NCBI GenBank assembly: GCA_050123055.1
Contig: JASFHU010000001.1
Location: 1-51,686 of the forward strand
DNA: 51,686 nt
Source of the DNA: Anaerolineae bacterium
GTDB taxonomy: Bacteria; Chloroflexota; Anaerolineae; JAAYZQ01
Reading direction: 5' to 3'
Under the pieces are notes generated by a model. It had not been told where the DNA came from, did no database searches, and saw only the letters and a program-made list of their open reading frames with translations. The position numbers and the translations under genes were made by a program. This document shows, one piece after another, positions 2,658 through 51,055 of this stretch (positions are counted from its first letter, which is position 1; each line of letters begins with the position of its first letter).

Positions 2658-2692
2658 CCACCCTTCCTTTCAGCACCTCACCCTGTCTATCC

Positions 2693-3745: not shown

Positions 3746-3761
3746 TTATTCATCCTCGTCG

Positions 3762-4532: not shown

Positions 4533-4544
4533 CGGCCCTTCCTC

Positions 4545-8393: not shown

Positions 8394-9836
8394 TCAGTAA
8401 TAGGCGACCTGTTCCAGTCCAAGATCCACTGCAAAGGCTAGGGCGTCAAAACTCCTTTTCATCAACCGAAAGCGAACCTCCCCGTAAGCGGGATCGTCCC
8501 ACAGGTTCTCGAATTCCCAGGGATCGGTTTCGAGGTCAAAGAGCTCACCCACATCGTGTCCGTGATAGACCACCAGCTTGTAGCGATCATCGCGGATCAT
8601 GGTGCCATAGGTTCCTTGAAAATCGGATCTGCCCGGCACGTCGGGGTTCAAGGCCCGGTAATACTCTGACCGGACAAAGTCGCGATGCCGGTTCGGATCG
8701 ACCTGGCCTGTAAGCAAGGGCAGCAGCGAACGCCCCCCCATCCGCTCAGGCACAGGCAGGCCACAAGCCTCCAACAGCGTCGGCGTGATGTCGGTTAGTT
8801 CCACCAGGGCCTCACTCACCAAGCCGGCCTGAAAGTGACCCGGCCAGGAAATGATCAAGGGAACGCGCACCGAACCTTCGTAGAACCGGCAGCCCTTGAG
8901 CAACAGTCCGTGATCGCCCAGTGCCTCACCGTGGTCGCTGGTAAAGAGGACGATGGTGTTCTCGGTCTGGCCCGTGCGTTCCAGTGCGGCCATCAGACGA
9001 CCCACGTTCCAGTCGATCAGTTCGATCATGGCATAGTACGCCGCCTGGATGGCCTGGGCATCAAGTTCCTCTGGCCTGCGGGCTGTGGTCTGAAAGTCTA
9101 TGCCGGCCAGCCTGGCCTGTGCGGCCAGATCTCTCTCCTGGAACTTTGGACCGGGCAGGCTTTCAGAATCGTATCGCTCCAGGTACTCGCGAGGGGGATC
9201 GAAAGGAGCGTGGGGATCAAAGACGTTGACACTCATCAGCCAGGGCTGATCCCGCTCCTCCTCGATGAATTCGATGGCCCTGTCCGCACACCAGGTTGTC
9301 TGGTGCAGGGAGGGAGGGATCTCTTCGGGGTGCTCGTACAGCTCTGATAGGTCCTTGCCTTGTGCCCGGAGCCAATCTTTGTAGTCGTGCCCCTCATCCC
9401 AGTGGTCCTGTGGATGGTGGCTCCAGTGGAAGACGCGGTAGCCATCATCCTCCGGCCGCGGCTCGATCCGTCCCTGTGCTCCAGACAGATGCAGCTTGCC
9501 CGCCAGGCCGCAGTCATAGCCCGCGTCGGCCAGGAGTTTGGTGACCAGCGGCGCGGCATCGGCCCAGTAGTCGTTGCCATTCATGCAGCCATGGACGCTG
9601 CTGGGGTACATACCGGTCAGAAAGCTGGCCCGGCTCGGCGTACTGATGGGGCTCTGGCAGTAGGCATAGCGAAACGCCACGCCATCATGCACCAGGCGAT
9701 CGATGTTCGGCGTGTGCACGTGGCGGTTGCCCAGGGCTCCGATCGTGTCGAATCTTTGCTGATCGGTGCAGATCCACAGAATGTTCGGTCGCTCTAATTC
9801 ATCCGCCATGAAAGTCTCTGACCCCCTACGATCCAT
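8394..9836 (-). CDS. Sulfatase (arylsulfatase A family), Ser-type active-site motif
   Basis: 480 aa. NILWICTDQQRFD N-terminus and signature P-I-S-T-P-S-R-A-S-F-L-T-G (Ser rather than Cys at the formylglycine position). No signal peptide is visible. An alternative ATG lies at 9809. Confidence 0.9.
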   Translation of the reverse strand: MDRRGSETFMADELERPNILWICTDQQRFDTIGALGNRHVHTPNIDRLVHDGVAFRYAYCQSPISTPSRASFLTGMYPSSVHGCMNGNDYWADAAPLVTKLLADAGYDCGLAGKLHLSGAQGRIEPRPEDDGYRVFHWSHHPQDHWDEGHDYKDWLRAQGKDLSELYEHPEEIPPSLHQTTWCADRAIEFIEEERDQPWLMSVNVFDPHAPFDPPREYLERYDSESLPGPKFQERDLAAQARLAGIDFQTTARRPEELDAQAIQAAYYAMIELIDWNVGRLMAALERTGQTENTIVLFTSDHGEALGDHGLLLKGCRFYEGSVRVPLIISWPGHFQAGLVSEALVELTDITPTLLEACGLPVPERMGGRSLLPLLTGQVDPNRHRDFVRSEYYRALNPDVPGRSDFQGTYGTMIRDDRYKLVVYHGHDVGELFDLETDPWEFENLWDDPAYGEVRFRLMKRSFDALAFAVDLGLEQVAYY

Positions 9837-10977
9837 CCAACTGCCCCATCGGTTTGAGGTCGATGCCCTGCCCCCACACCTCCCGTACCGTCTCCAGGTA
9901 GTATAAATAGTTGCCCAGGGGCACGTCTGGCGGCACCAGGTGGTCGCAGAAACCGATGTAGCCCCCCTCCTCCACCAGGGGAGTCAAGCGATGGACCTCG
10001 GCTTCAATCTCCTCCTTGGAGCTGGCCAGGATGCGCTTGTCAAAACCGCCCATCATCAGCAGGTCCTGGCCGTACTGCTGGCGAAGCCCTATCGGATCGG
10101 CGCCCCAGGTGCCTACCTCGACGGGAAACATACAGTTGACGCCCGCCTCCAGCCAAAGCGGGATCAGTTTGTCGATCTTGCCGTCGCAGTCGACCCAAAG
10201 GACGTCGATGTCATGCTTGTGCAGCAGGTCGGCGATGCGGCGGTAGTGGGGGACAAGATGTCGCTTTAAGTGCGCCGGGCTCAGCAGGGGTCCGGCGTTG
10301 AAGCACATATCCTCCCACATGGCGCAAGCGTCAAAGCGCCCGCCGGTTTCAAAAACGCGGCTCAGCGTGCCGACAATGCAGTCGGCAACGGTGGTGACCA
10401 TCTCCTCGAACCAGGCCGGATCGTCGTAGACTACGATGGACAGGTTCTCCAGCCCCATCCAGTTTCGCAGCCAGCCGTACAGACTACCTCCTGGCAGAAT
10501 GAGCGGATAGTCGCGGTCTGGATCGCGCCAGCGCTCAAGCGCGTTATCCCCTTCCGCCGGGTAACGGGCGGGGTGGTCGGGGTCCAGACGTGGCCTATAG
10601 TGCACCTGCCAGCTCTCGCGGTCGGTCAGCAAGTGTGCCAGGGATTTGGGAATGGAGCTCATGAACTTACGCCGGAGTACCCGGACGCCATCCTCCTGCT
10701 GCACAACTTGGTGGTCGCCACGGTCCTCCAGGACGCGCTCTTCAAAGGGGGGCATGAGCCCGACCTCGATGCCGGTCAACGACCCAGCCCTGCGGATCGG
10801 AAAATCGGTGCCAAAAAAGTCAAAAAAGTACCTTCCGCCCTCTTCAGAGATCTCCTCCGGCAGGCCCTGGTCATGCCAGACCTCCAGCGTCTCCGGCCAA
10901 TAGCCAAAGTCACAGATGGGCGACCGGTCACGGGGCTGGTAGTGCATGGTGGCCTGGAATCGTTCTCGATCGTTCAT
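9826..10977 (-). CDS. URO-D/MtaA-like family protein
   Basis: 383 aa. MNDRERFQATMHYQPRDRSPICDF..., with YGWLRNWMGLENL and CDGKIDKLIPLWLEAGVNCMFPVE segments typical of URO-D-like TIM barrels found in sugar loci. Confidence 0.7.
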   Translation of the reverse strand: MNDRERFQATMHYQPRDRSPICDFGYWPETLEVWHDQGLPEEISEEGGRYFFDFFGTDFPIRRAGSLTGIEVGLMPPFEERVLEDRGDHQVVQQEDGVRVLRRKFMSSIPKSLAHLLTDRESWQVHYRPRLDPDHPARYPAEGDNALERWRDPDRDYPLILPGGSLYGWLRNWMGLENLSIVVYDDPAWFEEMVTTVADCIVGTLSRVFETGGRFDACAMWEDMCFNAGPLLSPAHLKRHLVPHYRRIADLLHKHDIDVLWVDCDGKIDKLIPLWLEAGVNCMFPVEVGTWGADPIGLRQQYGQDLLMMGGFDKRILASSKEEIEAEVHRLTPLVEEGGYIGFCDHLVPPDVPLGNYLYYLETVREVWGQGIDLKPMGQLDGS

Positions 10978-11044: not shown

Positions 11045-11812
11045 CTAGCGGGCCAGCCAGCCGCCGTCCACGGGCACGATGGCGGCGTGCATGTAATCGG
11101 AGGCTGCCGAAGCCAAAAAGACGACGGCGCCCTTCAGGTCGGCCGGTTCTCCCCAGTCTCCGGCCGGGATGCGGGCCAGGATGGCCGGATTGCGCACCGG
11201 ATCGGCGCGCAGCGGGGCGGTGTTGTCGGTGGCCACGTAGCCCGGCGCGATGGCATTAACGTTGATGCCCTTGGCTGCCCATTCATTGGCCATCGCCCGG
11301 GTGAGCCCGGCCACACCGCTCTTGGCCGCCGTGTAGGGCGGGATCAGGATGCCACCCTGAAAGGAGAGCATCGAGGCGATGTGGATGATCTTGCCACCCC
11401 CCTGCCGGTCCATGACCCGCGCCGCTGCCTGAGACAGGAAGAACAGGGCTTTCAGGTTCACCTGGATCACGTCGTCCCAATCCTGCTCGCTGAACTCCAT
11501 TGCGGGTGCGCGGCGGATGATGCCCGCATTGTTGACCAGGATATCCAGTCGCCCCATCTCGCCCACTATCCGGTCCACAACCTCATTCAGCTGGGCCACG
11601 GTGGCTTGCTGCAGGTCACAGGGCAGCGGCAGGAAGCGCCTGCCCAACGCTTCTACCTGGGCCTGACTCTCCTCATAGTTGGTCCGGTACAGCCCGGCGA
11701 TGTCGGCGCCAGCCTCTGCCAGGCCCAGGGCCATCGCCTGGCCCAAGCCCCGGCCCACGCCCGTGACCAGGGCAACCTTTCCCTCCAGCCGGAACAGGTC
11801 CAGTACGCCCAT
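11045..11812 (-). CDS. kduD: 2-dehydro-3-deoxy-D-gluconate 5-dehydrogenase (SDR)
   Basis: 255 aa, near-colinear by eye with E. coli KduD: LEGKVALVTG.GRGLGQAMALGLAEAGADI..., GGKIIHIASMLSFQGG, YTAAKSGVAGLTRAMANEWA, and a VDGGWLAR C-terminus. Confidence 0.9.
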   Translation of the reverse strand: MGVLDLFRLEGKVALVTGVGRGLGQAMALGLAEAGADIAGLYRTNYEESQAQVEALGRRFLPLPCDLQQATVAQLNEVVDRIVGEMGRLDILVNNAGIIRRAPAMEFSEQDWDDVIQVNLKALFFLSQAAARVMDRQGGGKIIHIASMLSFQGGILIPPYTAAKSGVAGLTRAMANEWAAKGINVNAIAPGYVATDNTAPLRADPVRNPAILARIPAGDWGEPADLKGAVVFLASAASDYMHAAIVPVDGGWLAR

Positions 11813-11813
11813 G

Positions 11814-12632
11814 CTAGAACCCCAACTCTTTCAACATCGGAACGGTGCGACCCACCCAGCCCAGATTGGGATCGTCCACCGTCGCCTGGACGCGATGCTC
11901 ACCCGCCAGGAACCAGAGATAGTAGGTCATATAACCTGGCGCGCTGACGACGGTGTGGTAGCCATAGGGGGCCATCATGATGGTGTTATCCCGCACTGTA
12001 AAGTTTTCCGCCCCGCCCTGGTCGTTGTAGTAGTGGCAGATGCCAAAGCCGTCCGTTGGGTTGACCTTAAAGTAGTACATCTCCTCGTGGTACGCCTCCC
12101 GGGGCAGGTTTTCCACCTCGTGCTTGTGCGGGGGGTAGGTACTCCAGTTACCGCTCGGTGTAAAGGTCTCGCCAACGATGAGCCGCCGGGCCGGCAGGTC
12201 GGGCTGGGCGATCTCGGTCAGGATCTGGTGAAAGTAGCGCTTAAAGTTGGCCGCACCCCACACGCCGTTGGCTACCCGCTCGGGGCCAATGACGTAGGGG
12301 GCGATCTGCGCCTCGCTCGGGGCGCTGGTCATGGCGATCTGGACCGGCCCATCGGCGCTGATGGCGTACTCGGCGCCAGCCGGCAGGTAGACCGAGTGCG
12401 GCTTGCCGGCAAAGACGTTGGGCCGCCCGCCCACCCCTTCGAATCGCTGTCCGGAGACCTCAAAGGTTGCCTTGCCGCCCAGGATCACGGCCAGCACCTC
12501 ACGGTCTCCCGTGTTGCCTTGCTGCCGTTCCCCGGCGGGTAGCACGAGTAGGTCAAACCCTAGCAGTTTGCACGGATTGTGGGACAGGGCGTTCAGCCCC
12601 GCCTCGGATTCTAACGACGTAAAGTACTTCAC
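11814..12632 (-). CDS. KduI/IolB family isomerase (5-dehydro-4-deoxy-D-glucuronate or 5-deoxy-glucuronate isomerase)
   Basis: 272 aa with a GTG start and an AAGGAGG RBS. SGNWSTYPPHKHEVENLPREAYHEEMYYF closely resembles B. subtilis IolB SGNWSSYPPHKHDQDNLPEE. Its stop lies 1 nt from the kduD start, which fits a KduI role. Confidence 0.8.
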   Translation of the reverse strand: MKYFTSLESEAGLNALSHNPCKLLGFDLLVLPAGERQQGNTGDREVLAVILGGKATFEVSGQRFEGVGGRPNVFAGKPHSVYLPAGAEYAISADGPVQIAMTSAPSEAQIAPYVIGPERVANGVWGAANFKRYFHQILTEIAQPDLPARRLIVGETFTPSGNWSTYPPHKHEVENLPREAYHEEMYYFKVNPTDGFGICHYYNDQGGAENFTVRDNTIMMAPYGYHTVVSAPGYMTYYLWFLAGEHRVQATVDDPNLGWVGRTVPMLKELGF

Positions 12633-12642
12633 ATTCGCCTCC

Positions 12643-13134
12643 TTATCTCGAATAGCGCTCCCAATGGATGACTTGGTCTAAGGTCTTTTTTTCTTTCGTC
12701 GGCCACTGCACCGGCACACCAATGGGTACCAGGGTGAGCAGCTTTAGCTCTCGCGGTATCTCCAAAAGGGCCTTGAATTCCTCCTCCCGGAGCATCGTGT
12801 ACCCCTGGAGCCAACAGGAACCATAGCCCAGCGCTGTGGCGGCGATAAGCATGTTCTCTACGGCAGCGGAACCATCCTCCTGCCACCAGCGGGAAGCGGG
12901 ATCCACCACAACAGCAATGATCGCCCCTGCCTTTTCCATCCACTGCGAAGCAACCTTGAGCTGCTCTATCATATCACGATCTGTGACGACTACAAAATCC
13001 CAAGGTTGGTTGTTGTGACCCGATGCTGCCAGCCGCCCAGCGTCCACGATCGTCTCCAGGTCTTGCCTCGGGATCGGCTCGCCTGTGTACTCCCTGACAC
13101 TTCTTCTCTTCCTGATTGCTTCTAGTGCCTCCAT
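12643..13134 (-). CDS. Nitroreductase family protein
   Basis: Track ORF 12643..13140 starts with TTG. The ATG at 13134 follows the upstream stop by 2 nt, with a GGAGGATGGGAG RBS. RKRRSVREYTGEPIP...ASGHNNQPW is the nitroreductase signature. Confidence 0.85.
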   Translation of the reverse strand: MEALEAIRKRRSVREYTGEPIPRQDLETIVDAGRLAASGHNNQPWDFVVVTDRDMIEQLKVASQWMEKAGAIIAVVVDPASRWWQEDGSAAVENMLIAATALGYGSCWLQGYTMLREEEFKALLEIPRELKLLTLVPIGVPVQWPTKEKKTLDQVIHWERYSR

Positions 13135-13136
13135 CG

Positions 13137-13604
13137 TCAACTCCCATCCTCCGCCTGGCCAAAGGTCAAACGGCTAATCTTGCCCTCGCCCATGCCCTCG
13201 ATAGACACGGGCACGCGCTGGCGGCTCAAGGACACGCCTTTGACCTCACCAAAGAACACCTCACATAGAACGTAGGCGATGCAGCCTGGCTCCAAATGGC
13301 CGCCAAATGCACCATCGGCTGTGGAGAGTGCCACGTGGATGTGGGGTTCGCCCTCCACCACCAGGCCGTTCATGGCCAAGATCTCTATACCGCCCTGGCC
13401 GCGACGAAAGAGGTTCTCCGTCGGAATGCGATTGTGCGTCACCCAGTGCAGATGATAGGCGGCCAGTGTGCCGTAGCCGCCCAGGACCACCGCCTGTTGG
13501 ATGTCAGCTTCCTTGAGGAAACGCTGGCATGATTCCAGAACATCTTCCCCAGGATCCACGCGAACGATGTGGATACGGCTCAGGTTCATCGAAGCAAAGT
13601 CCAT
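13137..13604 (-). CDS. PPC/DUF296 domain protein
   Basis: 155 aa. Shows the pattern G.G.L....L......, a G.IEILAMNGLV strand, PHIHVAL...G..FGGHL and CEVF, typical of PPC (DUF296) domains. Confidence 0.65.
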   Translation of the reverse strand: MDFASMNLSRIHIVRVDPGEDVLESCQRFLKEADIQQAVVLGGYGTLAAYHLHWVTHNRIPTENLFRRGQGGIEILAMNGLVVEGEPHIHVALSTADGAFGGHLEPGCIAYVLCEVFFGEVKGVSLSRQRVPVSIEGMGEGKISRLTFGQAEDGS

Positions 13605-16085: not shown

Positions 16086-17129
16086 CTAGCCCAGGCCCTC
16101 GGCCTGCAGTGTCTCCTCGTAGACGGCCATGTACTCGGCGATCATCTCCCGGATGGGTAACTGGTAGGGACACTTTTCCTCGCATTGGCCACACTCGATG
16201 CAATTCCTGCCGGTCTGTAGCGCCGCGGCCAAGTTGCCGGTGGTCAGCCGCTCGACAGGCATTCGTTTCCACACGCTAGGCAGGTTCATCACCAGGGAGA
16301 TCCGCACATCCTCGGGGCACGGCTCGCAATATCCACAGCGGCGGCAAAAGCGCACACCTACCTCATTCCGGATGAGCTCGATCTCCTGCCGCTCCTGGGG
16401 AGTCAGGTCCCAGGAGCCCGCGACGATGGCCGCAATCTCTTCGATCTCCTCTACCCGCTCAATACCTGGATCGGGTACGACATGGTCGAACTGTAGCAGG
16501 TATTTGATGGCCAGGTTTGCATCGCTCAACATCCCCCCACCCAGCGGCTTCATGGCGATAAAGCCCAGCCCGTGCTGGCGGGCCAGGGGCAACAGCTTGT
16601 CGGCCGGCTCGTTGGTCACAAAGTTAAAGGGGAACTGGACGGTCTCAAAGTGGCCCGACGGTACCCCCTTCAGGGCGACATCCATCGAGTGGCTGGTGAT
16701 GCCGATGTGGCGGACGAGTCCGGTCTCCAGGGCCTCTTGCGCCGCTTCCAGCGCGCCTCCGGGGGCGAGTACCTGCTCGTAGGCGTCCATGGAACTGACG
16801 TTGTGTAATTGCCAGAGGTCGACGACGTCGATGCCCAGGTGGCGTCGGCTCTGCTCCAGGTGCCGCCAGGCCGTGGCCCGGTCCCGGGCCGCCGTTTTTG
16901 TAGCGATGACGAGCCGCTCCCTTTGGTCCGGCAGCGCAGCCAGCGCCTTGCCGATGCGCGCCTCGCTGTTGGAATAGGCGTTGGCCGTGTCGAGAAAGGT
17001 CACGCCCAGCTCGATGCAGCGCAGCACAACCCGGACCGCTTCCTCTTCGCTCACCCGTTGGATGGGTATGCCGCCAAAGCCTATCCTGGAAACCTGTAGA
17101 CCGGTCCTGCCCAATGTGGTTGTTTTCAT
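16086..17129 (-). CDS. Aldo/keto reductase with C-terminal 4Fe-4S ferredoxin-type cysteine motifs
   Basis: Track ORF 16086..17552 has an implausible Arg/Gly/Pro-rich extension. The real start is MKTTTLGRTGLQVSRIGFGG at ATG 17129, with a GAGGGAAG RBS and an ATGA overlap with the upstream stop. The C-terminus has CRRCGYCEPCP and CIECGQCEEKCP. Confidence 0.85.
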   Translation of the reverse strand: MKTTTLGRTGLQVSRIGFGGIPIQRVSEEEAVRVVLRCIELGVTFLDTANAYSNSEARIGKALAALPDQRERLVIATKTAARDRATAWRHLEQSRRHLGIDVVDLWQLHNVSSMDAYEQVLAPGGALEAAQEALETGLVRHIGITSHSMDVALKGVPSGHFETVQFPFNFVTNEPADKLLPLARQHGLGFIAMKPLGGGMLSDANLAIKYLLQFDHVVPDPGIERVEEIEEIAAIVAGSWDLTPQERQEIELIRNEVGVRFCRRCGYCEPCPEDVRISLVMNLPSVWKRMPVERLTTGNLAAALQTGRNCIECGQCEEKCPYQLPIREMIAEYMAVYEETLQAEGLG

Positions 17130-18271
17130 CTTCCCTCGGTTCCGGGTCCCCAAAAGTCGGGCGCCCCTCCTTCCAGGGCCAGTAGCACCTCCTGAAAGAA
17201 ATAGTCGCCACAGATAAAGTACTCCTCTACGCCCCAGCCCTTGTGGGCGTGGTAGGTCCCATCCCGCAGCAGCCCCTGGCCTTCCGGCTCGGTCTCGAAG
17301 CAGTTGGCGACCAGGGCGTTCAGGAGGGTAAGGGCCGAGCGATGGAACTGCTCCCGCTCCTCGCCAGCCACCAACCGGGCAAGTCGCAGCAAGCCGCTGG
17401 CTGCAATGGCCCCCGCCGAACTGTCGCGGTAGCGAGGGGCATCGCCGGGCAGGCGCAGGTCCCAAGTCGGCACCCCATCCGGCGGCAGCTCGGCCATGAA
17501 CCGGCGGGCTGCCCGCCGGGATGCATCCAGCAACTCTTCGTCCTGGCACCAATCTGCCGCCACGGCAAAGCCAAAGATGGCCCAGGCCTGGCCCCGTGCC
17601 CAGAGTGAATCGTCGGCGTAGCCCTGGTGTGTGCGCGGGCCCAGTGGCTGGCCCGACGCCTGGTCGAAAAAGAAGGTGTGATAAGAAGCCCCGTCAGGAC
17701 GCACTAAGTATTTGCGGCTGGTCTCGGCGTGGTCCTGCGCTGCACGCTGATACACAGGATCCCCCGTCTGTCCGGAGGCCCAGAACAGGAGCGGCAGGTT
17801 CATCATGGTATCGATGATGGTACGGCCACCCTCCTCGGGGTCGCCCACCTCTCCCCAGGCTTGGATGTACCGTCCGGCGGGCCGGTATCGCTGCACCAGT
17901 TCTCCGGCTGCCTGCAAGGCCAACTGCCGGGCCCCCTCGTCGCCACTCATCTCCCACTGCGCGCGAGCGCTGAGGCTGTATAGGAAGCCCAGGTCGTGGG
18001 TGATGTGCACCCGCTTCTCTAGCCGCTCTCGAAAGGTCGAGAGTAGTGACCCGGCGTGTGCTTTCAGGTCCTCGTCCCCTGTGGCAGCGTAGGCCAGCCA
18101 CAGCAGCCCGGTCCAGAAACCGGCCAACCAGTGGTTGTTCTCGGAGAGCTGGTAGCGGATTCCCTCGCCGACGATAGGGAACTGAGTCCCAAACGCCCCA
18201 TGATGGCGCCGGATTCGGGCCAGCGAGTCTTCCAGTGCGGCTCGTTGATCCGTAGACGGTGTCCACATCAT
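17126..18271 (-). CDS. Unsaturated glucuronyl hydrolase (GH88)
   Basis: Track ORF 17126..18304. I prefer the ATG at 18271, which forms an ATGA overlap with the stop of the upstream 105-aa ORF. NNHWLAGFWTGLLWLAY, ITHDLGFLY and IIDTMMNLPLLFWA are GH88-like. Confidence 0.8.
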   Translation of the reverse strand: MMWTPSTDQRAALEDSLARIRRHHGAFGTQFPIVGEGIRYQLSENNHWLAGFWTGLLWLAYAATGDEDLKAHAGSLLSTFRERLEKRVHITHDLGFLYSLSARAQWEMSGDEGARQLALQAAGELVQRYRPAGRYIQAWGEVGDPEEGGRTIIDTMMNLPLLFWASGQTGDPVYQRAAQDHAETSRKYLVRPDGASYHTFFFDQASGQPLGPRTHQGYADDSLWARGQAWAIFGFAVAADWCQDEELLDASRRAARRFMAELPPDGVPTWDLRLPGDAPRYRDSSAGAIAASGLLRLARLVAGEEREQFHRSALTLLNALVANCFETEPEGQGLLRDGTYHAHKGWGVEEYFICGDYFFQEVLLALEGGAPDFWGPGTEGR

Positions 18272-23186: not shown

Positions 23187-25223
23187 CTAGTGTGGCTCCA
23201 TCCAGTAGTGGGATGGGTCCTGAGTACCAGGCGTCATGATCAGCCAGTCGGAGGTGTGGCTTGGGGCCACGTTGTGGAAGTAGTTCTTGACGATGACCGG
23301 TGCAGGCGCCATACCAGCCGTCCCGATGACGTTGAGCCGGGTGGTGGTCTTGTTTACGATCTCCTTGGCGATCTTGACCTGCTCAGCGGTGTCGGTTACG
23401 GTCTTGTACTGGTCAAAGAGATCCATCAACTCTTTCAGCTCGGCTGTGGGCTCTTCACCCTCCGCCCCACCGGTCTTGTACCAGGTACCAAAGGAGGGAG
23501 CCATCCACGATCTCTCGTCAAAGGGGAACTGGTAGATGGGATCGATCATGGGCACCAGGCCACGGTCAGTGGTCCAGGTGGCGATCATGACCTCGTTCGC
23601 GCCCGCCCGGGGCCAGTACAGGTCACGCGTCGACACCTCGACCTGTGTGTTGAGGCCGATGGCCCGCCAGTTCTCCGCGACCAACTCGAGGCCATCCAGC
23701 ATATCCTGGCTCCACTGCGCGTTTCCTTCGATGACCAGGATCAACTCCGAGCCATCGGCAAAGGTGCGCATGCCATCCGCACCCACCGGCAGGCCCATGT
23801 CGTCGAGCAGGGACTTGGCCAACTCGGGATCGTATTCGCCATAGACGTTCTCGATCTCTGGCTGGTAGAGTGCCGAATCATCCACGACGCTGATGGTACG
23901 CGGCGTGGCCTGGCCCAGCCAGCCAACATCGTTGATCGTGTCCCGGTCTATGGCCTGGGATAGAGCTTGGCGGAACTCGAAGGTCTGCATCAGTTCCCGG
24001 TACTTTTCGTCGGGATAGCTCTGGTTGGGGAAGAAGGTCAGCTCTGATGCCCGCGCCGTCGTCCACAGACCTGCGGTGTAATCGCCCTCTGCGGCATTCT
24101 CCTGGAACACCGGGTAGGTGGCTAGACTCATGCCGCGGTGCTGCATGTCGATCTTGCCGGCAAGGGCCAGAGACTGAATGGCAGCGTTGTCCTCGACCAG
24201 GTAGAAGTAGACCTCGTCGATGTAGGGCAACTGGTTGCCCTCGACATCTACTTTCCAGTAGTAGGGATTGCGGGTGGCGAGCATGTGGTCGGCCCCCTCC
24301 TCCCACTGGGTGATGCGCCAGGGGGTCATCGCCGGGCGCTCGGGGTTGTACTCCCAGGCCATGGCCTCGAACTGCTCGTAGGTGGCGTCCGAGTTGTACT
24401 TGGGGTGGTACTGCTCCAGGTAGTGCCGGGGGGCAAAGAAGCCAAAGCGCTCAAAGCCCAGCGGCCACTGGTTGCCGTGGAAGGCCAGACCCGTGGTCTC
24501 GGCCAGACCGTTGGGACCGGCGAATATGAGCTTGATGGTGGTATCGTCGATCCTTTCCAGGGTCATCGGCTCGCCGTTGACCACCCACTCGGCGTGGGGG
24601 GCAGTGGTGATGTTGGTGTCGTTCTCAATGTCCTCCCACCAGAAGATGATGTCGTCCACGGTAAAGGGTGCGCCATCGGACCACTTGAGGCCTTTGCGCA
24701 GGTAGAGAGTCAGCTCGGTGCCGTCGTCGCTGAACTCCCATGCTTCGGCCAGGCCGGGCTGCACGCCGTCCTTCGGGTCGCGCGGCCAGCGCAGTACCGG
24801 CTCGTAGACGATGCGGCCGTAGCAGTGAAAGTCCTTGATGCCCCGCCAGCCACGGTACCAGGTGCCGCCATACTGGCCCACCGACTTGATGGGCAGGACC
24901 ACCAGCGGATTCTCGGGCAGGCGCTCGGCCACGGGCGGGAGATCACCCGCGGCTACCATGTCAGCCAGCGCTGGCGCCTCGCCGTAGCTGGTGATCTCCA
25001 CCTCGACGGTCTCGACCACGGTGACCTCGACCTCTTTTTCGACCTCGACCGTCTCGACGACAGTCTTTTCGACCTCAACGGTTTCGACCACCGTCTTTTC
25101 CACCTCGACGGTCTCTACGACGGTCACTGGCTCAGGCGTGGGACCGCAAGCCGTGAGGATCAACGACAGCATCAGCACGACGCCGATTACCGCCCGCCAC
25201 ATGGAACTCTTTGGATGAAACAT
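23187..25223 (-). CDS. ABC transporter substrate-binding lipoprotein, family 5 (Opp/Dpp-type, probably oligosaccharide-binding)
   Basis: 678 aa. Signal peptide plus lipobox LILTAC, a repetitive VETVEVEKTV tether, then a family-5 SBP body. First gene of the transporter block, with an AAAGGAGGG RBS. Confidence 0.9.
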   Translation of the reverse strand: MFHPKSSMWRAVIGVVLMLSLILTACGPTPEPVTVVETVEVEKTVVETVEVEKTVVETVEVEKEVEVTVVETVEVEITSYGEAPALADMVAAGDLPPVAERLPENPLVVLPIKSVGQYGGTWYRGWRGIKDFHCYGRIVYEPVLRWPRDPKDGVQPGLAEAWEFSDDGTELTLYLRKGLKWSDGAPFTVDDIIFWWEDIENDTNITTAPHAEWVVNGEPMTLERIDDTTIKLIFAGPNGLAETTGLAFHGNQWPLGFERFGFFAPRHYLEQYHPKYNSDATYEQFEAMAWEYNPERPAMTPWRITQWEEGADHMLATRNPYYWKVDVEGNQLPYIDEVYFYLVEDNAAIQSLALAGKIDMQHRGMSLATYPVFQENAAEGDYTAGLWTTARASELTFFPNQSYPDEKYRELMQTFEFRQALSQAIDRDTINDVGWLGQATPRTISVVDDSALYQPEIENVYGEYDPELAKSLLDDMGLPVGADGMRTFADGSELILVIEGNAQWSQDMLDGLELVAENWRAIGLNTQVEVSTRDLYWPRAGANEVMIATWTTDRGLVPMIDPIYQFPFDERSWMAPSFGTWYKTGGAEGEEPTAELKELMDLFDQYKTVTDTAEQVKIAKEIVNKTTTRLNVIGTAGMAPAPVIVKNYFHNVAPSHTSDWLIMTPGTQDPSHYWMEPH
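24993..25127 (-). repeat. In-frame 30-bp tandem repeats encoding the (VETVEVEKTV)n tether of the binding lipoprotein
   Basis: Protein residues 33-77: VTVVETVEVEKTVVETVEVEKTVVETVEVEKEVEVTVVETVEVEI. The DNA shows about 4.5 imperfect 30-nt units. Confidence 0.85.
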
Positions 25224-25424: not shown

Positions 25425-26426
25425 CTACGGTGCGCTAGCCCGGACGACGAGCTCCAGGGGCAGCACAATCTCAGAACAGATCTCGGCAAAGCCATCAATC
25501 CGTTTCAACAGTAGGCGCATAGCTTGATCCCCCAGGTCGTAGCGAGGGACGTGGCAGGTTGTGAGTGGTGGGATGACCAGTGCAGCCATTGGGATGTCGT
25601 CAAAGCCAACCAGGGCCAGGTCGTCAGGCACCCGGCGGCCCAGCTCGGCACAGGCCTGCAGTGCACCCACAGCCACCAGGTCGTTGTAACAGAAAAGAGC
25701 TGTGAGCTCAGGGTGGTCAGAGAGCAATGCCTTGGCTGCCTCTCTTCCATCCTCTGTCTCGTAGGAACAGGAGCGTACCCAGCCTGCGTTCAAGGAGATT
25801 CCTGCAGCCGCCAGGGCGGCGTGGTAGCCTTTGGTCCGCTGCTGACTGCTGTAGGAAGTCAGCGGCCCGGCCAGAAAGCCTATCGCCCTGTGTCCGGTGC
25901 GTAGCAGGTGTTGGGTGGCCACCTGAGCACCCTCTTTGTCAGCCAGCAGGACCGCGTCTACGTGGTATACCTCCAATCTCCGGTTGACCAGTACGGAAGC
26001 GGGATGGTGATCCAGGGCTGCGCGCAGGCCGTCGTCGTGGAGCCGTGAACTGCACAGTACAACGCCATCCACGCGCTTCTCCTCCAATGAATCCAGGGCC
26101 GCAATCTCACGCTGAGGGCTTTCGTCGGTATTGCAGACAAAGATGTTGTAGCCTGCCGCGCGGGCCCTGTCTTCAGCGCCGCGGGCAACATCGGAGAAAA
26201 ATGGATTCGCCATGTCAGGGACCACCAGGCCGAGGGTACCGGTTCGTTGCGTGGCTAGCCCGCGGGCGATGCCGCTGGGCCGGTACCCCATCTCTTCAAT
26301 GATTTCCAGGACACGCTGGCGGGTCGTGGGGCTGATCTCCTCCTTCCCGTTGACCACCCTCGAGACGGTCATCAGGGAAACACCAGCTTCGCGGGCCACA
26401 TCCGATATCGTAACGCGACCGGCCAT
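25425..26426 (-). CDS. LacI family transcriptional regulator
   Basis: Track ORF 25425..26678 is over-extended. The start is MAGRVTISDVAREAGVSLMTVSRVVNG at ATG 26426 with a GGAGAAGGGTGG RBS. It has an HTH plus a periplasmic-binding-fold effector domain. Confidence 0.9.
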   Translation of the reverse strand: MAGRVTISDVAREAGVSLMTVSRVVNGKEEISPTTRQRVLEIIEEMGYRPSGIARGLATQRTGTLGLVVPDMANPFFSDVARGAEDRARAAGYNIFVCNTDESPQREIAALDSLEEKRVDGVVLCSSRLHDDGLRAALDHHPASVLVNRRLEVYHVDAVLLADKEGAQVATQHLLRTGHRAIGFLAGPLTSYSSQQRTKGYHAALAAAGISLNAGWVRSCSYETEDGREAAKALLSDHPELTALFCYNDLVAVGALQACAELGRRVPDDLALVGFDDIPMAALVIPPLTTCHVPRYDLGDQAMRLLLKRIDGFAEICSEIVLPLELVVRASAP

Positions 26427-26442: not shown

Positions 26443-26476
26443 GTGTTGTTAGCGCTTACGTGAGCGCTAACAACAC
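26443..26476. promoter_or_regulatory. Perfect 14-bp inverted repeat with two AGCGCT cores (candidate LacI-family operator or leader hairpin)
   Basis: GTGTTGTTAGCGCT-TACGTG-AGCGCTAACAACAC ends 17 nt upstream of the LacI ATG. It lies downstream of an extended -10 (TGcTATACT, minus strand, 26583-26578). Confidence 0.5.
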
Positions 26477-26729
26477 GGCACCAAGGTAACAGCTTGTCGT
26501 TCCCACGGACACAGTGAACCGAACCCCGCTTGCGTTGTTGTCTGCAGCGACGGCTGTTTTTGAGCCAGTACTCAGCCAGTATAGCACAGGCGCCTTGGAC
26601 TTTGGCGCACAGCCTTTGGACAAAACCGTCGTCTGGGAGATGTCTTTCAGGACAGGAGCGGCGCGGAGCAGGCGACATCGGCTCCTTGGGGATTTGTGTG
26701 GACCCTGGGGTATTCGAGCTGAGCCCTTT

Positions 26730-29700
26730 TCATTCGGCCAGCAGCTCAGCCCGCTGTCGATATTCCGTGGGCGATAGACCCGTCACCTTGCGGAACACCC
26801 GGCTAAAGTAGGCCGGATCCTTGAACCCGACCTGGCGGGCTACTGTCCCAATATCTTCGCTGGTGTGGCGCAACCGTTCTTTGGCCTGCAGGATACGGTA
26901 TCGATTCAAGTACTCCCAGGGAGAAAGGCCCAACTCCTGGCGAAACACCCGGCTGAGGTAGTCCTCGCTGACGCCAATCGCATCGGCTATCTCCCAGCGC
27001 AGGAACGGCCGAGCATAGTTCTGATGAAAGTAGGCCACAGCTTGCTTGACCAGCGCACTGGTGTGTTGCGGTAGTGTCTCCCTGCCAAACAGAACCTGGT
27101 GTAGCGAGGCCACGATCTCATCTCTCGACAGGATGCCCTTGCTCTGCAGGGTGACCAACGCATGCCGCTCCAGTCGCTTGACATCATCGTTGGTGAGTAC
27201 CCGACCGCTCAAGATCAGGACTGGTACCCGCCGCGTCCGATCATTGGCCCGCATCCAGTCTAGCACGTCGAATCCATCCATCTCGGGCATCATGAGATCC
27301 AGGATCACCAGGCTGGGAACTTCTTGGGCCATGCAGGCCAGGGCGGCAGCGCCATCGGCGGCGGTGTGGATGAGGTAGCCGCTGCATCCCTCTGCCACGA
27401 CCTGCTGGTACAGATCGAGCACCTCGGGATCGTCATCTACGATGAGGATCGGACCGGCGTCTTCTGGGGGGCAGATGCTATTAATGGCCTCCATCAAGCT
27501 GGTTCCATCCAGTGGCTTGGCGACAAAGTCGGTCATGCCGATGCTCAGGGCCGCACCCTTACCCGTTTCCTGGCCATACAGGATAAAGGGGGCCTGCGAC
27601 AGCTTGGGGTGATTCCTCAGTCGCCGGACAACTACCCAATCGCCGGAGCGGGCATTGGCCAGGTCCCAGGCCAGGGCGGCGGGTTCCACCCTCTGCATGA
27701 CCGCGCCAAGGTCGTCGGTTGGCCGCAAGTTGTGGATCTCCAGGCCCTGGCAGCGGCTGAATTCGACGATCTCGGCGGCTGGCCGATCGTGAGAGGAGAT
27801 CAGGAGGAGGACAGGCTGGGCTGCCACTGAGGGGAGAGAGGGCCGATCGCTCAAGGTAGGCAGAGGCAGGTAGAGGTGAAACGTGCTCCCCTGGCCCGGC
27901 TGGCTTTCCAACTCTACGGAGCCGCGGTGCAGTGCTACTAGCCGGCGGGTGATGGTCAACCCCAGGCCCGCCCCTTCCAGCCTTCGATTCGCCTGACCGG
28001 CAGTGACAAAGGGCTCAAAGATACGCTCCTGCATCTCGATCGGAATACCGGGTCCCGTGTCCTGGACCCAGATGTGCAGAGCCTCTGCCATGACCTCGGC
28101 TCCCAGGGTGACCCAGCCCCGCTCTACGAACTTGCTGGCATTGCTCAATAGATTGAGCAAGATCTGCCGTAGCCGCACTGGATCGGCCTGTACCGTGGGC
28201 AAGCGCTCGGGTAGCTGCAGGTGCCAGGCGACCTCGTCGCGAGAATCGGCACTCGCCATACTGCGAAAGGCTTCTTCCAGCAGCGGGCGAGGGTCCATGA
28301 GCTCCAGGTACAGGTCGAGTTCGTCGATCTCGGCCCGTGAAAGGTCGAGCAGGTCATTGATCACCCTCAGTTGGTGCCTTGCGCTCTGGTGAATGTGTAA
28401 CAGATCGTTCAGCAATTCCTCTGGCAGGTCAGCGCCGTAGGGCATTGGCGAGCCCAGTGCCTCTTGCGCGCAACCAATGATCACGTTCAATGGGGTGCGT
28501 AGCTCGTGGCTCACGTTTGCCAGCAACCGCATCTTGAGCCGATCAGCCTTCTCTGCAGCAGCCCGGGCCTGGCGAGTTTCATCGAACAGGAGAGCGCCCT
28601 TTAGCGAGCTGCTGATCTGCCCGCGCAGTACCTCGTAGATCGTCCCATCTTTCGGCCCGACTCCGAACAGCGCAACTCCAATCTGTTCATTGCGAAAATG
28701 GAGCGGTTCGACCACCAGGTTGCAGGGCCTGTCGGGTCTACGCTGGCCTGTCAAGTCGAGTGGTGCCAGGTGCTCGGAAGGGAAACTTATTTCATCGGGC
28801 GTCAACGCCATGCGCCCGGTTTCATCATAGGCCAGGACCAAGCGTGACCGTTCGATCGTTTCCTGCGGGTTCTCGTACAAAGAAAGGTAGCAGCACTCAA
28901 TACCTAATGCCGGCAAATCTCGAGCCAGGACGTCTGCCAGCTCTGCCACGTCAAAGGTGGTGACGAGCGCCCGGCCAATCTGTTGCAAGGTTTGGGTCTG
29001 GCCGGTCCTGCGCACCATCTCGTGGCCTTGGGTCCGTCGCACCGCTTCACCAATCAGGACCCGCGCCTGCCCGAAAAGATCCTCAGCCTGACGAAGGGCC
29101 TCTGCGTCAGCATCGCCGAAACTGGGCAACGTGTGGCGGCGCAACGTCGACACCACATCCTGCCAGCCCTGGACCTGACCACTGGCCAGCATACCCTGGC
29201 GCAAGAGCTGATCCAGTTCCTGCAAAAACTTGCCCTCCGCGGCTGGAGCACCAGTCACCTGAGCGACGAAAGGATCGAACAGTCGAGGCGCCCAGTCGGT
29301 CCCCAGTCCCTTGGTCACGCTACCTGCCGCCTGCACCATCGCCTGGAGAGTGACCTCCCGCCGTGCGGAAAGCACGGTCGTTAGGGTCGCTTCAGTCGCT
29401 GATGGGAGTGTGGGGTCTGTGGCTGCCCGAACCACCGAGGGCAACAGGCAGCCACACGACTGGCGTACCTTCAACTTGGCCGGCAGGGCCACCTGCTCGG
29501 GCACTTGTTCACCAGCCAGCATCGCCAGCAGCATCTCCACCGCTCTCCGTCCCTGCTCGTAGAACGGCAATCTCACCGAAGTCAGCGGTGGTGTAACAAA
29601 CCTGCTCTCCAGCACATCGTTGAATCCCACCAGAGCTATCGCCTCGGGGACCTTGATGTTTCGTGTCTGCAGCTCTTCGAGCGCACCCAATGCGGGAAGG

Positions 29701-30392
29701 TCGCTTACAGTCACTACCGCCTCAATGTCCACCTGGGGGCGCAGGTTTCGTTCATCCAGCAGCAGGCGGATTCCCCCGGCGCCCGTAGCTGGGACAAACT
29801 CGCCAGGCATGGTAACAAGGTTGGGATCCAGGGGGATGCCATGCGCCTCCAGCGCGTCGGTATAGGCCCGGTAGCGTTCCTGCGCATAGTAGTGGCTCTC
29901 GGGCCCACGGACAAAAGACAAGCGACGGTATCCGTGGACCTCAACCAGGTGGGCGATCATGTCCCTCATGCCCTGGTAGCTATCGATCGATACGGTGGGT
30001 ATGCCTTCCATCGGCAAGGTGATGCTGACCATCGGCAGAGGATAGTAGCGGTCGTGAAAGCTCGCGACTTTGTCGGGTTCGAGGGTTCCGCCAACAGAAG
30101 AGGCCCAGGTCACCAGGCCGTCCACAACCTCCGCGCTGGCCAGACTATATGCTACGTTGGCCGGCGAGGGGAAACCAGCAGGGTCGCGCAGGGTCTCTCC
30201 GGCAAAGCAGATCAGGTGGGCGCCACGCTCCCGGGCCGCATCAACCACACCAGACCACAATGCTTGGCTAACATTGTCGCCAATCCGAGGGGTTAGATAG
30301 CCAATGGTGGGGCGTGTGTCGCGTGGCTCAAACGAGGCTATGGCTCCATCTGCATGCTGTGTGTCGTATCTACCGCCAACAACTGAGGACAT
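26730..30392 (-). CDS. Soluble hybrid two-component regulator: LacI-type sugar-binding fold, GAF-like region, HisKA/HATPase kinase, degenerate receiver, canonical receiver, AraC HTH
   Basis: Track ORF 26730..30419 starts with TTG; the ATG at 30392 follows AGGAGG. H-box SHELRTPL (His codon 28506-28508), N box LLNLLSNASKF, G boxes DTGPGIP and GAGLGLTI. The receiver Asp in LVILDLMMPEMDG is at 27297-27299. The C-terminal AraC-type HTH has GFKDPAYFSRVFRK. I saw no hydrophobic TM segment. Confidence 0.85.
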   Translation of the reverse strand: MSSVVGGRYDTQHADGAIASFEPRDTRPTIGYLTPRIGDNVSQALWSGVVDAARERGAHLICFAGETLRDPAGFPSPANVAYSLASAEVVDGLVTWASSVGGTLEPDKVASFHDRYYPLPMVSITLPMEGIPTVSIDSYQGMRDMIAHLVEVHGYRRLSFVRGPESHYYAQERYRAYTDALEAHGIPLDPNLVTMPGEFVPATGAGGIRLLLDERNLRPQVDIEAVVTVSDLPALGALEELQTRNIKVPEAIALVGFNDVLESRFVTPPLTSVRLPFYEQGRRAVEMLLAMLAGEQVPEQVALPAKLKVRQSCGCLLPSVVRAATDPTLPSATEATLTTVLSARREVTLQAMVQAAGSVTKGLGTDWAPRLFDPFVAQVTGAPAAEGKFLQELDQLLRQGMLASGQVQGWQDVVSTLRRHTLPSFGDADAEALRQAEDLFGQARVLIGEAVRRTQGHEMVRRTGQTQTLQQIGRALVTTFDVAELADVLARDLPALGIECCYLSLYENPQETIERSRLVLAYDETGRMALTPDEISFPSEHLAPLDLTGQRRPDRPCNLVVEPLHFRNEQIGVALFGVGPKDGTIYEVLRGQISSSLKGALLFDETRQARAAAEKADRLKMRLLANVSHELRTPLNVIIGCAQEALGSPMPYGADLPEELLNDLLHIHQSARHQLRVINDLLDLSRAEIDELDLYLELMDPRPLLEEAFRSMASADSRDEVAWHLQLPERLPTVQADPVRLRQILLNLLSNASKFVERGWVTLGAEVMAEALHIWVQDTGPGIPIEMQERIFEPFVTAGQANRRLEGAGLGLTITRRLVALHRGSVELESQPGQGSTFHLYLPLPTLSDRPSLPSVAAQPVLLLISSHDRPAAEIVEFSRCQGLEIHNLRPTDDLGAVMQRVEPAALAWDLANARSGDWVVVRRLRNHPKLSQAPFILYGQETGKGAALSIGMTDFVAKPLDGTSLMEAINSICPPEDAGPILIVDDDPEVLDLYQQVVAEGCSGYLIHTAADGAAALACMAQEVPSLVILDLMMPEMDGFDVLDWMRANDRTRRVPVLILSGRVLTNDDVKRLERHALVTLQSKGILSRDEIVASLHQVLFGRETLPQHTSALVKQAVAYFHQNYARPFLRWEIADAIGVSEDYLSRVFRQELGLSPWEYLNRYRILQAKERLRHTSEDIGTVARQVGFKDPAYFSRVFRKVTGLSPTEYRQRAELLAE

Positions 30393-30433
30393 TCGCCTCC
30401 TGGTGCAGCAAGCGCCCAAATGCTCAAGATCTG

Positions 30434-30522
30434 TATCCTCTCAGCAAGTGGGGGCGGGGTATATGCGGGCGGCAAAGCCGCCCGCATATACCCCAACTTC
30501 CCCCGATCTATTGAAAAGATAC
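30434..30522 (+). repeat. Copy 1 of a bipartite ~50-nt repeat, split by the 39-nt palindrome
   Basis: Left arm TATCCTCTCAGCAAGTGGGGGC (30434-30455) and core CCCCGATCTATTGAAAAGATAC (30501-30522). The core is 22/22 identical and the left arm 18/22 identical to copy 2. Confidence 0.75.
30456..30494. repeat. Perfect 39-nt palindrome (18-bp stem, 3-nt loop)
   Basis: GGGGTATATGCGGGCGGC-AAA-GCCGCCCGCATATACCCC. No flanking U/T tract. It interrupts repeat copy 1 relative to copy 2. Confidence 0.8.
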
Positions 30523-30569
30523 CAAGTCCTAGACCCTTGCCGGGCTAGCGGGACGACCGGGCAAGCGAT

Positions 30570-30598
30570 AGTATAGCATGAGCGCGTATCACTGTCAA
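30570..30598 (-). promoter_or_regulatory. Sigma-70-type promoter of the hybrid regulator gene
   Basis: Minus strand TTGACA (30598-30593), 17 nt, TATACT (30575-30570) with TGc immediately upstream (extended -10). Predicts a ~170-nt 5' UTR. Confidence 0.65.
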
Positions 30599-45784: not shown

Positions 45785-47059
45785 TCAAGTTCGCGAGCTA
45801 CCGGCCACTACTGCTTCCTGTTCTAGCTTTAGACCTCGGGCTAGCATGTATTGGATGAGCTCCGACATGTCGGCCAGATGGGGGTGGTGGGTCAAGCGAG
45901 CCAGCCGGCGCTCGTCGGCAGGGCTCAGGGGTTTGGCCCAAAGGGCGTAGGCATTGAGTGTATCCATATCCATCCGGTAGGGTCTGAAACGGGGGGAGAC
46001 CAGCCGCCGCAACTGGGCCAGGATACTCAGGCCTCCGCAGTCCAGATCGGCCCAGACCAGCAGCGGAACGCGCTCTGGGAGGCCCTGGGAAAGAGTTTGC
46101 AGCAGGTGGCGGCAGGAGGGCGAGGGATTACCCCCCAAGTAGAGCGCGGCCAGACCCGCCGGCTCGCGGCGGATCAGCTCATAGAGCGGCGTCAGGTTCT
46201 CGACGCACACCACTTGCTGGGCATCCACAGTGACCTCCTGGACCCCCGCCGCGAGTCGCGCTGGGAGGCCCACCGATGGTTCAAAGTCGCGCAGGTCATG
46301 GGCGACGCCCCGGCGATCGACCAACCGCCAGGGGCCATAGAGGTAGATGTGGCCGGGGTTGGAGACCAGCCCCAATTCCAAGAGTACCTCGTGAGGTCTC
46401 AACTCGCGCCAGTCGGGTCCGTGGCGGCGGGCCAGGTGTACCACCGCCCTGCGGAGCGCGTCGAAGCGTTTGCTATCGTTAAAGAGGCGCACACTGAAGA
46501 CGCGGATGGGCATCTCTTCGACCACGTCGCCCAGAGCCACCAGGGCGGCCAACAGGTCGCGGTTGTGATCCTCGTCGGTGAGGGAAAAGGGTGCGGGCGA
46601 GCGCTCCTCCTTGAGCTGCTTCAGGGTGTGCTGCACCGCCCGGAGCCGCCAGCCGTCGATCCGGTACCGGTCACTCAACAGGAGGTCGCGCAGTCGAGCG
46701 CGGCGCTCGGCCAGAGTAGTGCGGCCCAGCAGGGCAAAGGCGTCACCGGCGCGGTCCGGGTTGAGCGTGGCAGATTCCAGCAAATGGCCGGTCTCGCCAG
46801 GTAGCCAGGTCAAATCTACCAGGCCGGAGCGCTCCAACCGCCAGAACTGCTCATTGGCCACCTGGCGCGGCTCGGGGTCCAGTTGACTGGTATAGCCGGT
46901 AAGGTCCAGCGCCTCGAGATCGCAGCGGATGATGCGGGCGCGAGGATCCTGGCGCCGCTCGTACTGGTCGAGCAGGTTGTTCAGGATGGTGGCTACGTCG
47001 CGCGTAGGCGTGAAGGACAATAACTGAGACATGGTGTTTCCGTCCCTATCCGTGCCCAT
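45785..47059 (-). CDS. jetD: Wadjet JetD (Toprim/topoisomerase-VI-like nuclease subunit)
   Basis: 424 aa; an alternative ATG lies at 47032. The C-terminal half has VVCVENLTPLYEL (Toprim Glu) and LLVWADLDCGGLSIL (DxD), as in DUF2220-type JetD. Last gene of the SMC-like operon. Confidence 0.75.
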   Translation of the reverse strand: MGTDRDGNTMSQLLSFTPTRDVATILNNLLDQYERRQDPRARIIRCDLEALDLTGYTSQLDPEPRQVANEQFWRLERSGLVDLTWLPGETGHLLESATLNPDRAGDAFALLGRTTLAERRARLRDLLLSDRYRIDGWRLRAVQHTLKQLKEERSPAPFSLTDEDHNRDLLAALVALGDVVEEMPIRVFSVRLFNDSKRFDALRRAVVHLARRHGPDWRELRPHEVLLELGLVSNPGHIYLYGPWRLVDRRGVAHDLRDFEPSVGLPARLAAGVQEVTVDAQQVVCVENLTPLYELIRREPAGLAALYLGGNPSPSCRHLLQTLSQGLPERVPLLVWADLDCGGLSILAQLRRLVSPRFRPYRMDMDTLNAYALWAKPLSPADERRLARLTHHPHLADMSELIQYMLARGLKLEQEAVVAGSSRT

Positions 47060-50998: not shown

Positions 50999-51055
50999 CC
51001 CGCTCACCTCCTAGTGGCTGGGATCCGGACTCCACGGACCCAGTCAAGTTTCGCT

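Follow-up and report, generated by a model that had tools for sequence, protein, structure and literature searches.

The stretch of DNA analyzed here, hereafter the window, comprises 51,686 nucleotides of contig JASFHU010000001.1 from an Anaerolineae bacterium of the Chloroflexota (assembly GCA_050123055.1). One of its genes encodes a protein of 1220 amino acids (aa), the hybrid regulator, in which a LacI-type ligand-binding core, a histidine kinase (HK), two receivers (REC1 and REC2) and an AraC-type helix-turn-helix (HTH) domain are found on a single chain. The interpretation that we favor, with a probability of roughly 60%, is that the hybrid regulator is a cytoplasmic, self-contained two-component regulator, in other words a soluble analogue of the hybrid two-component systems (HTCS) of Bacteroides. 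This interpretation builds on the domain content of the protein, its catalytic residues, the absence of membrane segments, conservation throughout the family, linkage to uronate genes and conserved cis-acting motifs.

The gene is located on the minus strand at 26730-30392, stop codon included. The open reading frame (ORF) is uninterrupted from 26730 to 30419. Its earliest possible start, a TTG at 30419, would add nine residues and yield a product of 1229 aa; the ATG at 30392, which yields the 1220-aa product, has an AGGAGG sequence just ahead (30401-30396). Pfam detects Peripla_BP_3 (E 9e-31) and Peripla_BP_1 (E 1e-13) in residues 29-313 (29454-30308), HisKA in residues 620-688 (28329-28535), HATPase_c in residues 737-845 (27858-28184), Response_reg in residues 982-1079 and HTH_18/HTH_AraC in residues 1135-1214 (26751-26990), all on the minus strand. 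Two gaps are left, residues 314-619 and 846-981, and these were resolved by other means as a linker and as REC1, respectively. The order proposed in a first-pass annotation made from the sequence (LacI core, linker, kinase, degenerate receiver, canonical receiver, AraC HTH) was thus verified domain by domain with Pfam, profiles and structural models. When NCBIfam was examined, no model reached its cutoff, and generic kinase models scored far below theirs. The hybrid regulator is outside every curated NCBIfam family.

Homologues were sought in a collection of 5.8 billion proteins. At least 113 of the best 120 matches span the whole protein (95-100% coverage, identity of 51-90%) and present the same Pfam set; their contigs are distinct, come from JGI, ENA, NCBI and Logan, and in some cases reach megabase size. 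GTDB was also scanned, using one genome per species. More than 578 related stretches were detected, and the best 80 of these, which were examined, contain 38 genes with the full order of periplasmic-binding-protein (PBP) fold, linker, HK, REC1, REC2 and AraC domain. The carriers are mostly Chloroflexota (Anaerolineae, Thermoflexales, Caldilineaceae and Ardenticatenaceae), and five belong to Spirochaetota/Treponemataceae (loci L027, L042, L045, L057 and L076), with 37-42% identity. Two copies of the hybrid regulator are present in some genome bins. The first-pass annotation had asked how common the architecture is, and the answer is a populous Chloroflexota family and not a rarity. Abundance makes the architecture less surprising and, at the same time, more relevant. 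The family is apparently uncharacterized: the name of its members in databases is merely ‘substrate-binding domain-containing protein’, and neither an HTCS that is soluble or cytoplasmic nor a histidine kinase with a LacI core turned out to be described in the searchable literature, whose coverage leaves out most subscription journals.

The genomic context of the hybrid regulator points to uronate catabolism. All the genes downstream lie on the minus strand, and the first of them encodes a LacI-family repressor of 333 aa (25425-26426, from MAGRVTISDV), as determined by ORF scanning and Pfam. The locus continues with genes for a family-5 solute-binding protein, an Opp-type ABC transporter, two GH88-family hydrolases (the Pfam GH88 model spans GH105 as well), GH28, KduI, a KduD-like dehydrogenase, a sulfatase, a UxuA-like dehydratase, a PL22-like oligogalacturonate lyase and several oxidoreductases. 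The genes upstream of the hybrid regulator are unrelated. These contents agree with the proposal that the gene sits head-to-tail with lacI at the top of a uronate/sulfated-glycan locus. The order regulator-LacI-transporter-GH88 is also found in L084 (82% identity) and L001 (70%). In L002 and L003 (51-55% identity) there is no LacI gene, and the regulator adjoins a CUT1 transporter, GH4, GH88, GH28, KdgK and KdgA. The homologue of L085 (72% identity) abuts a PL22-like lyase, and in the spirochaete locus L027 (42% identity) the hybrid gene is followed by a transporter, GH88 and GH28. Hence, uronate/pectin genes adjoin the hybrid gene in seven out of seven loci (the window, L001, L002, L003, L084, L085 and L027), and the orthologous group is tied to uronate-oligosaccharide catabolism in every locus examined. 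Because the spirochaete gene precedes the same GH88 and GH28 genes, transfer of the regulator together with its locus between phyla is suggested.

The first ~300 residues of the hybrid regulator make a type I binding-protein regulatory core like that of LacI/GalR repressors. The core begins ~25 residues from the N-terminus. The CytR core model of NCBIfam matches residues 27-313 (E 7e-30), and when residues 20-320 were compared with PDB sequences, the top matches were all LacI/GalR regulatory cores, the best one being a reconstructed LacI transcription factor (E 1.5e-34). Unlike LacI/GalR repressors, the protein has no N-terminal HTH and hinge, and its core ends in an RxSCGC motif and runs on into the kinase. 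In agreement with the fold without HTH that had been proposed, Pfam did not find the LacI HTH (PF00356) in the protein, and the core aligns collinearly with the neighboring LacI over residues 64-331 of the repressor (27% identity). Judging from these alignments, the sensor is a LacI core deprived of HTH and hinge, and its lineage is that of LacI, not that of secreted binding proteins. Recent duplication of the neighboring lacI gene was considered and ruled out since identity is only 27%.

To locate the ligand pocket, E. coli LacI was aligned to the family profile, using a LacI sequence that was checked by the self-consistency of well-known residue numbers. The positions mapped were the inducer contacts R197, D247, N246, D274 and F293. 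In the profile alignment, R197 and D247 correspond to R173 and D231 of the hybrid regulator, both invariant, and N246, D274 and F293 correspond to the conserved residues S230, N258 and F277. Because positions of inducer contact fall on conserved residues, the alignment suggests that the sensor keeps a maintained ligand pocket.

At the exit of the binding core, precisely where LacI proteins normally terminate, lies the R-x-S-C-G-C motif (residues 310-315; 29448-29465, minus strand). The motif is present in all 50 close homologues and in 33 of the 35 full-length genomic loci, and within the wider module family described below it is carried by 142/143 representatives. A metal, Fe-S or redox site is one possible role. 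The linker that follows was described in the first-pass annotation as a GAF-like region of ~300 aa, and Pfam finds nothing in residues 314-619, including any GAF at E ≤ 0.01. A profile of the linker retrieves nothing from PDB sequences even at E 10. Residues 316-612 were modelled with AlphaFold2 (AF2) from an alignment of 23 sequences (mean pLDDT 85). The model combines bundled short helices with a ~50-residue helix, an alpha/beta domain and, at its C-terminus, a long helix. In a Foldseek search of the PDB with this model, the top 20 matches are all GAF domains (best E 1.8e-3; TM-score relative to the target, 0.55-0.62). Furthermore, the C-terminal half of the linker aligns with a GAF that Pfam recognizes in the corresponding place of a sibling family (hhalign probability 94%, E 1e-7, 147 columns). 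On the grounds of the model and of the hhalign match, the linker is predicted to be made of a helical bundle (residues ~316-455; 29028-29447, minus strand) and a divergent GAF-like domain with long flanking helices (residues ~456-612; 28557-29027, minus strand), which runs into the dimerization helix of the kinase.

This linker is not restricted to the hybrid regulator. When its profile was searched against 1.84 billion cluster representatives, 3738 proteins were matched, 1336 of them at E ≤ 1e-30. The linker is nearly always found at about residues 300-600, straight after an N-terminal LacI-type core. The outputs placed behind it vary: a kinase alone, a kinase with receivers, STAS, PAS, a chemoreceptor signalling domain or arrays of canonical GAF domains. 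In turn, the HK-REC1-REC2-AraC cassette is also found behind other soluble sensors, namely a PAS-GAF pair and a combination of Peripla_BP_4 and canonical GAF. Proteins of the latter kind (~1075 aa; Roseiflexaceae and Anaerolineae) form the sibling family mentioned above. They share with the hybrid regulator the cassette from HK to AraC, a soluble layout, an N-terminal binding-protein fold and a GAF or GAF-like domain ahead of the kinase, and differ from it in having a sensor similar to ribose-binding protein, a canonical GAF detectable by Pfam and no helical bundle. The one locus of this sibling family that was examined, L049, adjoins an Opp-type transporter. A separate observation concerns L085, where a gene for an 803-aa protein with a LacI-type core and GAF domains (11093-13504, minus strand), a member of the wider module family, lies two genes from the 72% homologue.

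Reuse of the module invites a speculation that we make tentatively, as it is more doubtful than probable: the LacI-type core, the RxSCGC motif, the helical bundle and the GAF might constitute an undescribed and widely reused cytoplasmic sensor cassette. The CxC would be a metal, Fe-S or redox site, perhaps bridging a dimer, and the cassette would integrate sugar with a second cellular signal. Integration of a second signal would account for the existence of a phosphorelay where a one-component repressor seems enough. A rival possibility, and an unlikely one in our opinion, is that the LacI-type core is a mere dimerization scaffold, and that what the protein truly senses reaches it via the CxC motif or the GAF-like domain (redox state, a metal, an Fe-S cluster or a small molecule), in which case it would report on the state of the cell and not on a sugar. 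The location of the GAF-like domain between core and kinase speaks for this possibility, and so do the near-invariance of RxSCGC in the wider family, regardless of output, and the reuse of the module with STAS, PAS, chemoreceptor and GAF-array outputs. However, the GAF is too degenerate for every Pfam GAF model, and the canonical ligand-contact positions of LacI are conserved. Moreover, linkage to GH88 and GH28 is kept across two phyla, as predicted for a substrate-specific sensor.

The conservation of the signalling domains was examined in an alignment of 50 homologues with 51-87% identity to the query. In the kinase, H629 (within SHELRTPL), N751 (N box), D778, G780 and G782 (G1 box) and G807, G809 and G811 (G2 box) are invariant. 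The F box is also present, and the annotation of a complete HisKA/HATPase kinase holds. Searches of the PDB indicate that the best relatives of the kinase region are HK853-type kinases. REC2 spans residues 982-1100 (27093-27449, minus strand) and has the makeup of a canonical receiver, as had been proposed: D986, D987, D1032 and K1085 are invariant in the 50 sequences, and S1062 is found in the domain. Its region matches PDB entry 12aw, named ‘hybrid two-component system protein’. The AraC-type double HTH recognized by Pfam completes the chain. Loss of the conserved His or Asp upon closer alignment, which would have contradicted the initial proposal, was not observed.

REC1 (residues 858-975; 27468-27821, minus strand) is more divergent. 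A profile of residues 852-978 matches receivers among PDB sequences over their full length (E 1.2e-6) and aligns in register with REC2 of the same protein (hhalign E 1.4e-4). The AF2 model contains the first four beta-alpha units and is of low confidence in the C-terminal third; Foldseek matches were weak (E ~1e-2), and more was learned from the sequence profile. In place of the acidic pair stand S865 and S866, at positions occupied by Ser or Ala across the 50 sequences, and G940 is found where receivers have Thr/Ser. Degeneration of this receiver had been correctly noted, with the qualification that the domain is not fully stripped: D910, at the phospho-acceptor position inside an invariant AWD, and K959 are both invariant. 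Pfam finds no Hpt domain in the hybrid regulator, and none among the neighbor genes scanned. Because REC1 is devoid of metal-binding residues and has no Hpt partner, its sequence indicates that it is probably a non-phosphorylatable pseudo-receiver with a structural or docking role.

An alternative is a multistep phosphorelay from His629 to Asp910 in REC1 and then to Asp1032 in REC2, in the manner of classical hybrid kinases. It draws on the fact that REC1 occupies the position of a hybrid-kinase receiver and keeps the invariant Asp and the conserved Lys. We nevertheless hold it to be quite improbable, as the Mg-binding acidic pair is Ser/Ala in 50/50 sequences and the Thr/Ser position is Gly. 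Unlike classical phosphorelays, the system also lacks an Hpt, both in the protein and among the Pfam-scanned neighbors.

Another possibility is that the kinase is vestigial and that the protein works as a one-component regulator in which the binding-protein fold directly controls the AraC domain. One-component regulators with a PBP-like fold and an AraC domain are well established, E. coli XylR being an example, and one representative of the wider module carries the AraC domain directly after the linker, with no kinase. Like XylR, the hybrid regulator combines a cytoplasmic sugar-binding PBP-like fold with an AraC-type DNA-binding domain; unlike XylR, where coupling is direct, it has a complete His-Asp phosphotransfer module of ~800 residues in between. 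The catalytic residues of kinase and receiver are all invariant down to 51% identity, which denotes selection on phosphotransfer and makes a vestigial kinase very hard to accept.

Absence of a signal peptide and of transmembrane (TM) helices, one of the claims of the first-pass annotation, was examined by hydropathy analysis. The highest Kyte-Doolittle mean over 19 residues is 1.52 with either start codon. As controls, the two ABC permeases of the window show 5-6 peaks of 1.6-2.93, and the signal peptide of the binding protein reaches 2.12. In the 120 homologues, all the peaks above 1.6 correspond to core beta-strands of a receiver or of the binding core and contain charged residues; hidden membrane helices were thus discarded, as the controls behaved as expected. 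The start of the binding core within ~25 residues of the N-terminus is a family-wide trait. On the basis of hydropathy and of N-terminus position, no TM helix or signal peptide was detected in the hybrid regulator, in the 120 homologues or in ~70 complete genes of other genomes. A fusion created by a frameshift or by faulty assembly was likewise rejected, because full-length homologues are collinear on more than 100 independent contigs. Either an artefactual fusion or a membrane anchor like that of Bacteroides HTCS, for which nothing was found in favor, can be practically dismissed: full-length homologues are collinear on those contigs and in ~38 reference genomes, composition is uniform over the whole gene, and no hydrophobic segment reaches 1.6 in the face of controls at 2.1-2.9.

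HTCS are the textbook route from glycan sensing to gene expression in Bacteroides, and by definition they are membrane sensors of oligosaccharides in the periplasm. They are inner-membrane proteins whose periplasmic sensor domain is flanked by membrane segments, and one of them, BT1754, the fructose sensor of the fructan locus of B. thetaiotaomicron, has a binding-protein fold of ~300 aa as sensor (PMC3243724). The hybrid regulator resembles HTCS in having HisKA, HATPase_c, a receiver and an AraC HTH on one chain, with the phospho-acceptor His and Asp conserved, and in being encoded beside glycan-utilization genes; with BT1754 it also shares the use of a binding-protein fold as sensor. In contrast to HTCS, whose periplasmic sensors are mostly Reg_prop/YYY beta-propellers, it has no membrane segment, no signal peptide and no Reg_prop/YYY match. 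Further differences are a sensor of cytoplasmic LacI-repressor lineage, the additional helical/GAF linker and pseudo-receiver, and a locus with ABC transporters and without SusC/SusD genes. The conceptual similarity to the Bacteroides systems that had been pointed out therefore extends to the shared domains and stops at the membrane. Because a periplasmic sensor set in the membrane is missing, we do not file the protein as a member of HTCS and regard it as a soluble variant of the same design.

Potential regulatory sites were found on both sides of the gene. Upstream of the hybrid regulator, a predicted sigma-70-type promoter (TTGACA-17-TATACT with a TG extension, 11/12 consensus; 30570-30598, minus strand) is conserved in L001 and L084. 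Right after its -10 box, a stem-loop is found in the leader (30536-30565, minus strand), and pairing is kept via different sequences in the three loci compared (the window, L001 and L084). Another structure, a perfect stem of 18 bp with a TTT loop and no T-run behind it (30456-30494, minus strand), was left outside the system as it is missing in the orthologous leaders; it is probably a local insertion or a repeat element.

The 303-bp spacer between the hybrid regulator and lacI contains two blocks conserved in the same three loci. One is a tandem direct repeat, GTCCAA-N3-5-CTGTGC (26584-26621, minus strand), with copies at 26607-26621 and 26584-26600, which is a candidate AraC site. The proximal copy abuts TGCTATACT, a sequence with a -10-like TATACT at 26578-26583 and no recognizable -35. 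The window contains two matches to the repeat, both in this spacer, compared with 0.04 expected, and the repeat also adjoins hybrid genes in L008, L010 and L024. At ≤1 mismatch it is ~33-fold denser within 500 bp of the ends of the hybrid genes than elsewhere in 39 loci (10 in 36.9 kb against 5 in 616 kb). The other block is a perfect palindrome of 34 nt with 14-bp arms and a 6-bp spacer (26443-26476, minus strand), located directly ahead of the ribosome-binding site of lacI; the 26 nt at its core do not vary among the three orthologous loci. From their sequence and location, the repeats are likely the site of the AraC domain, and the palindrome is likely the LacI operator; alternatively, the palindrome could be an RNA hairpin. 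A search of the window at ≤3 mismatches yielded no copy of this candidate LacI operator beyond the one upstream of lacI, and none was identified before the transporter genes. The spacer between lacI and the binding-protein gene is poorly conserved in the 70% orthologue and contains no clear motif.

From these pieces we infer which ligand is bound, in which direction regulation works, by what route the phosphoryl group travels and which DNA sites are targeted, as follows. The protein, likely a homodimer, would take an imported uronate-derived sugar, or a catabolite thereof, into its LacI-type cleft. Closure of the cleft would be relayed to the dimerization helices of the kinase by the helical bundle and by the degenerate GAF, via its helical spine, and would shift the kinase/phosphatase balance at His629. 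The phosphoryl group would then pass directly from His629 to Asp1032 of REC2. Phosphorylated REC2 would free or dimerize the AraC domain, which would bind the tandem GTCCAA-N-CTGTGC repeats by the -10 box before lacI and activate lacI as well as the ABC-transporter, GH88, GH28 and Kdu genes that lie downstream. LacI, bound at the palindrome between the repeat promoter and its own start codon, would provide a second, negative input in the form of feedback. Integration of two regulators on one operon, as envisaged in the first-pass annotation, is made plausible by the conserved repeat and palindrome, which fall short of proof. The further claim that all steps are cytoplasmic and intramolecular stands in its first half, given the lack of a membrane segment; the second half is an assumption, and phosphotransfer in trans within a dimer is equally possible.

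Certain observations weigh against this proposal. It is not evident why a sugar sensor in the cytoplasm should need a phosphorelay, and an intact cleft is read from an alignment only. As REC1 keeps Asp and Lys, some phospho-chemistry in this domain may be possible. Concerning the repeats, the proximal copy overlaps an extended -10, which is oddly near for an activator site, and repression might be the outcome. Lastly, the ~33-fold enrichment of the repeat near the gene ends should be taken as indicative, since it sets mostly intergenic DNA against mostly coding DNA in few loci.

If the protein operates as a soluble analogue of HTCS, the Chloroflexota, which are major polysaccharide degraders, and some spirochaetes would run the one-polypeptide logic of HTCS wholly inside the cell, with a sensor borrowed from LacI repressors. 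The question raised is what is gained when a ligand-binding domain in the cytoplasm and a DNA-binding domain on the same chain are separated by a His-Asp step that consumes ATP. The step might gate the response by energy state, integrate a second input or act as a kinetic filter. On the practical side, a soluble family could suit structural work on full-length sensor kinases and might be a source of orthogonal sugar-responsive switches, and the conserved link to GH88 and GH28 would aid the annotation of uronate-utilization regulons in uncultured Chloroflexota.

Additional observations were made in the loci under study. In the uronate locus of the window, the family-5 solute-binding protein (23187-25223, minus strand) has a signal resembling that of lipoproteins (…LILTAC), and a linker with VETVEVEK(T/E)V repeats separates this signal from the binding domain. 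Two genes for proteins of the URO-D-like (uroporphyrinogen-decarboxylase) fold are found within the locus (571-1695 and 9826-10977, minus strand). Between the two GH88 genes lies a gene (16086-17552) whose product joins an aldo-keto reductase to a 4Fe-4S dicluster domain, and this gene is conserved in L001. Elsewhere, the L049 locus, from a Roseiflexaceae bin, harbors a ribonucleotide reductase gene (2511-5570, plus strand) with an intein that contains a LAGLIDADG endonuclease domain. Finally, Wadjet-like defence genes are present at 45785-51007 of the window (minus strand): JetD (45785-47059, PF09983), an SbcC/SMC-like ATPase of 1110 aa (47046-50378) and, overlapping the ATPase gene, an upstream ORF (50375-51007) that may be JetB.

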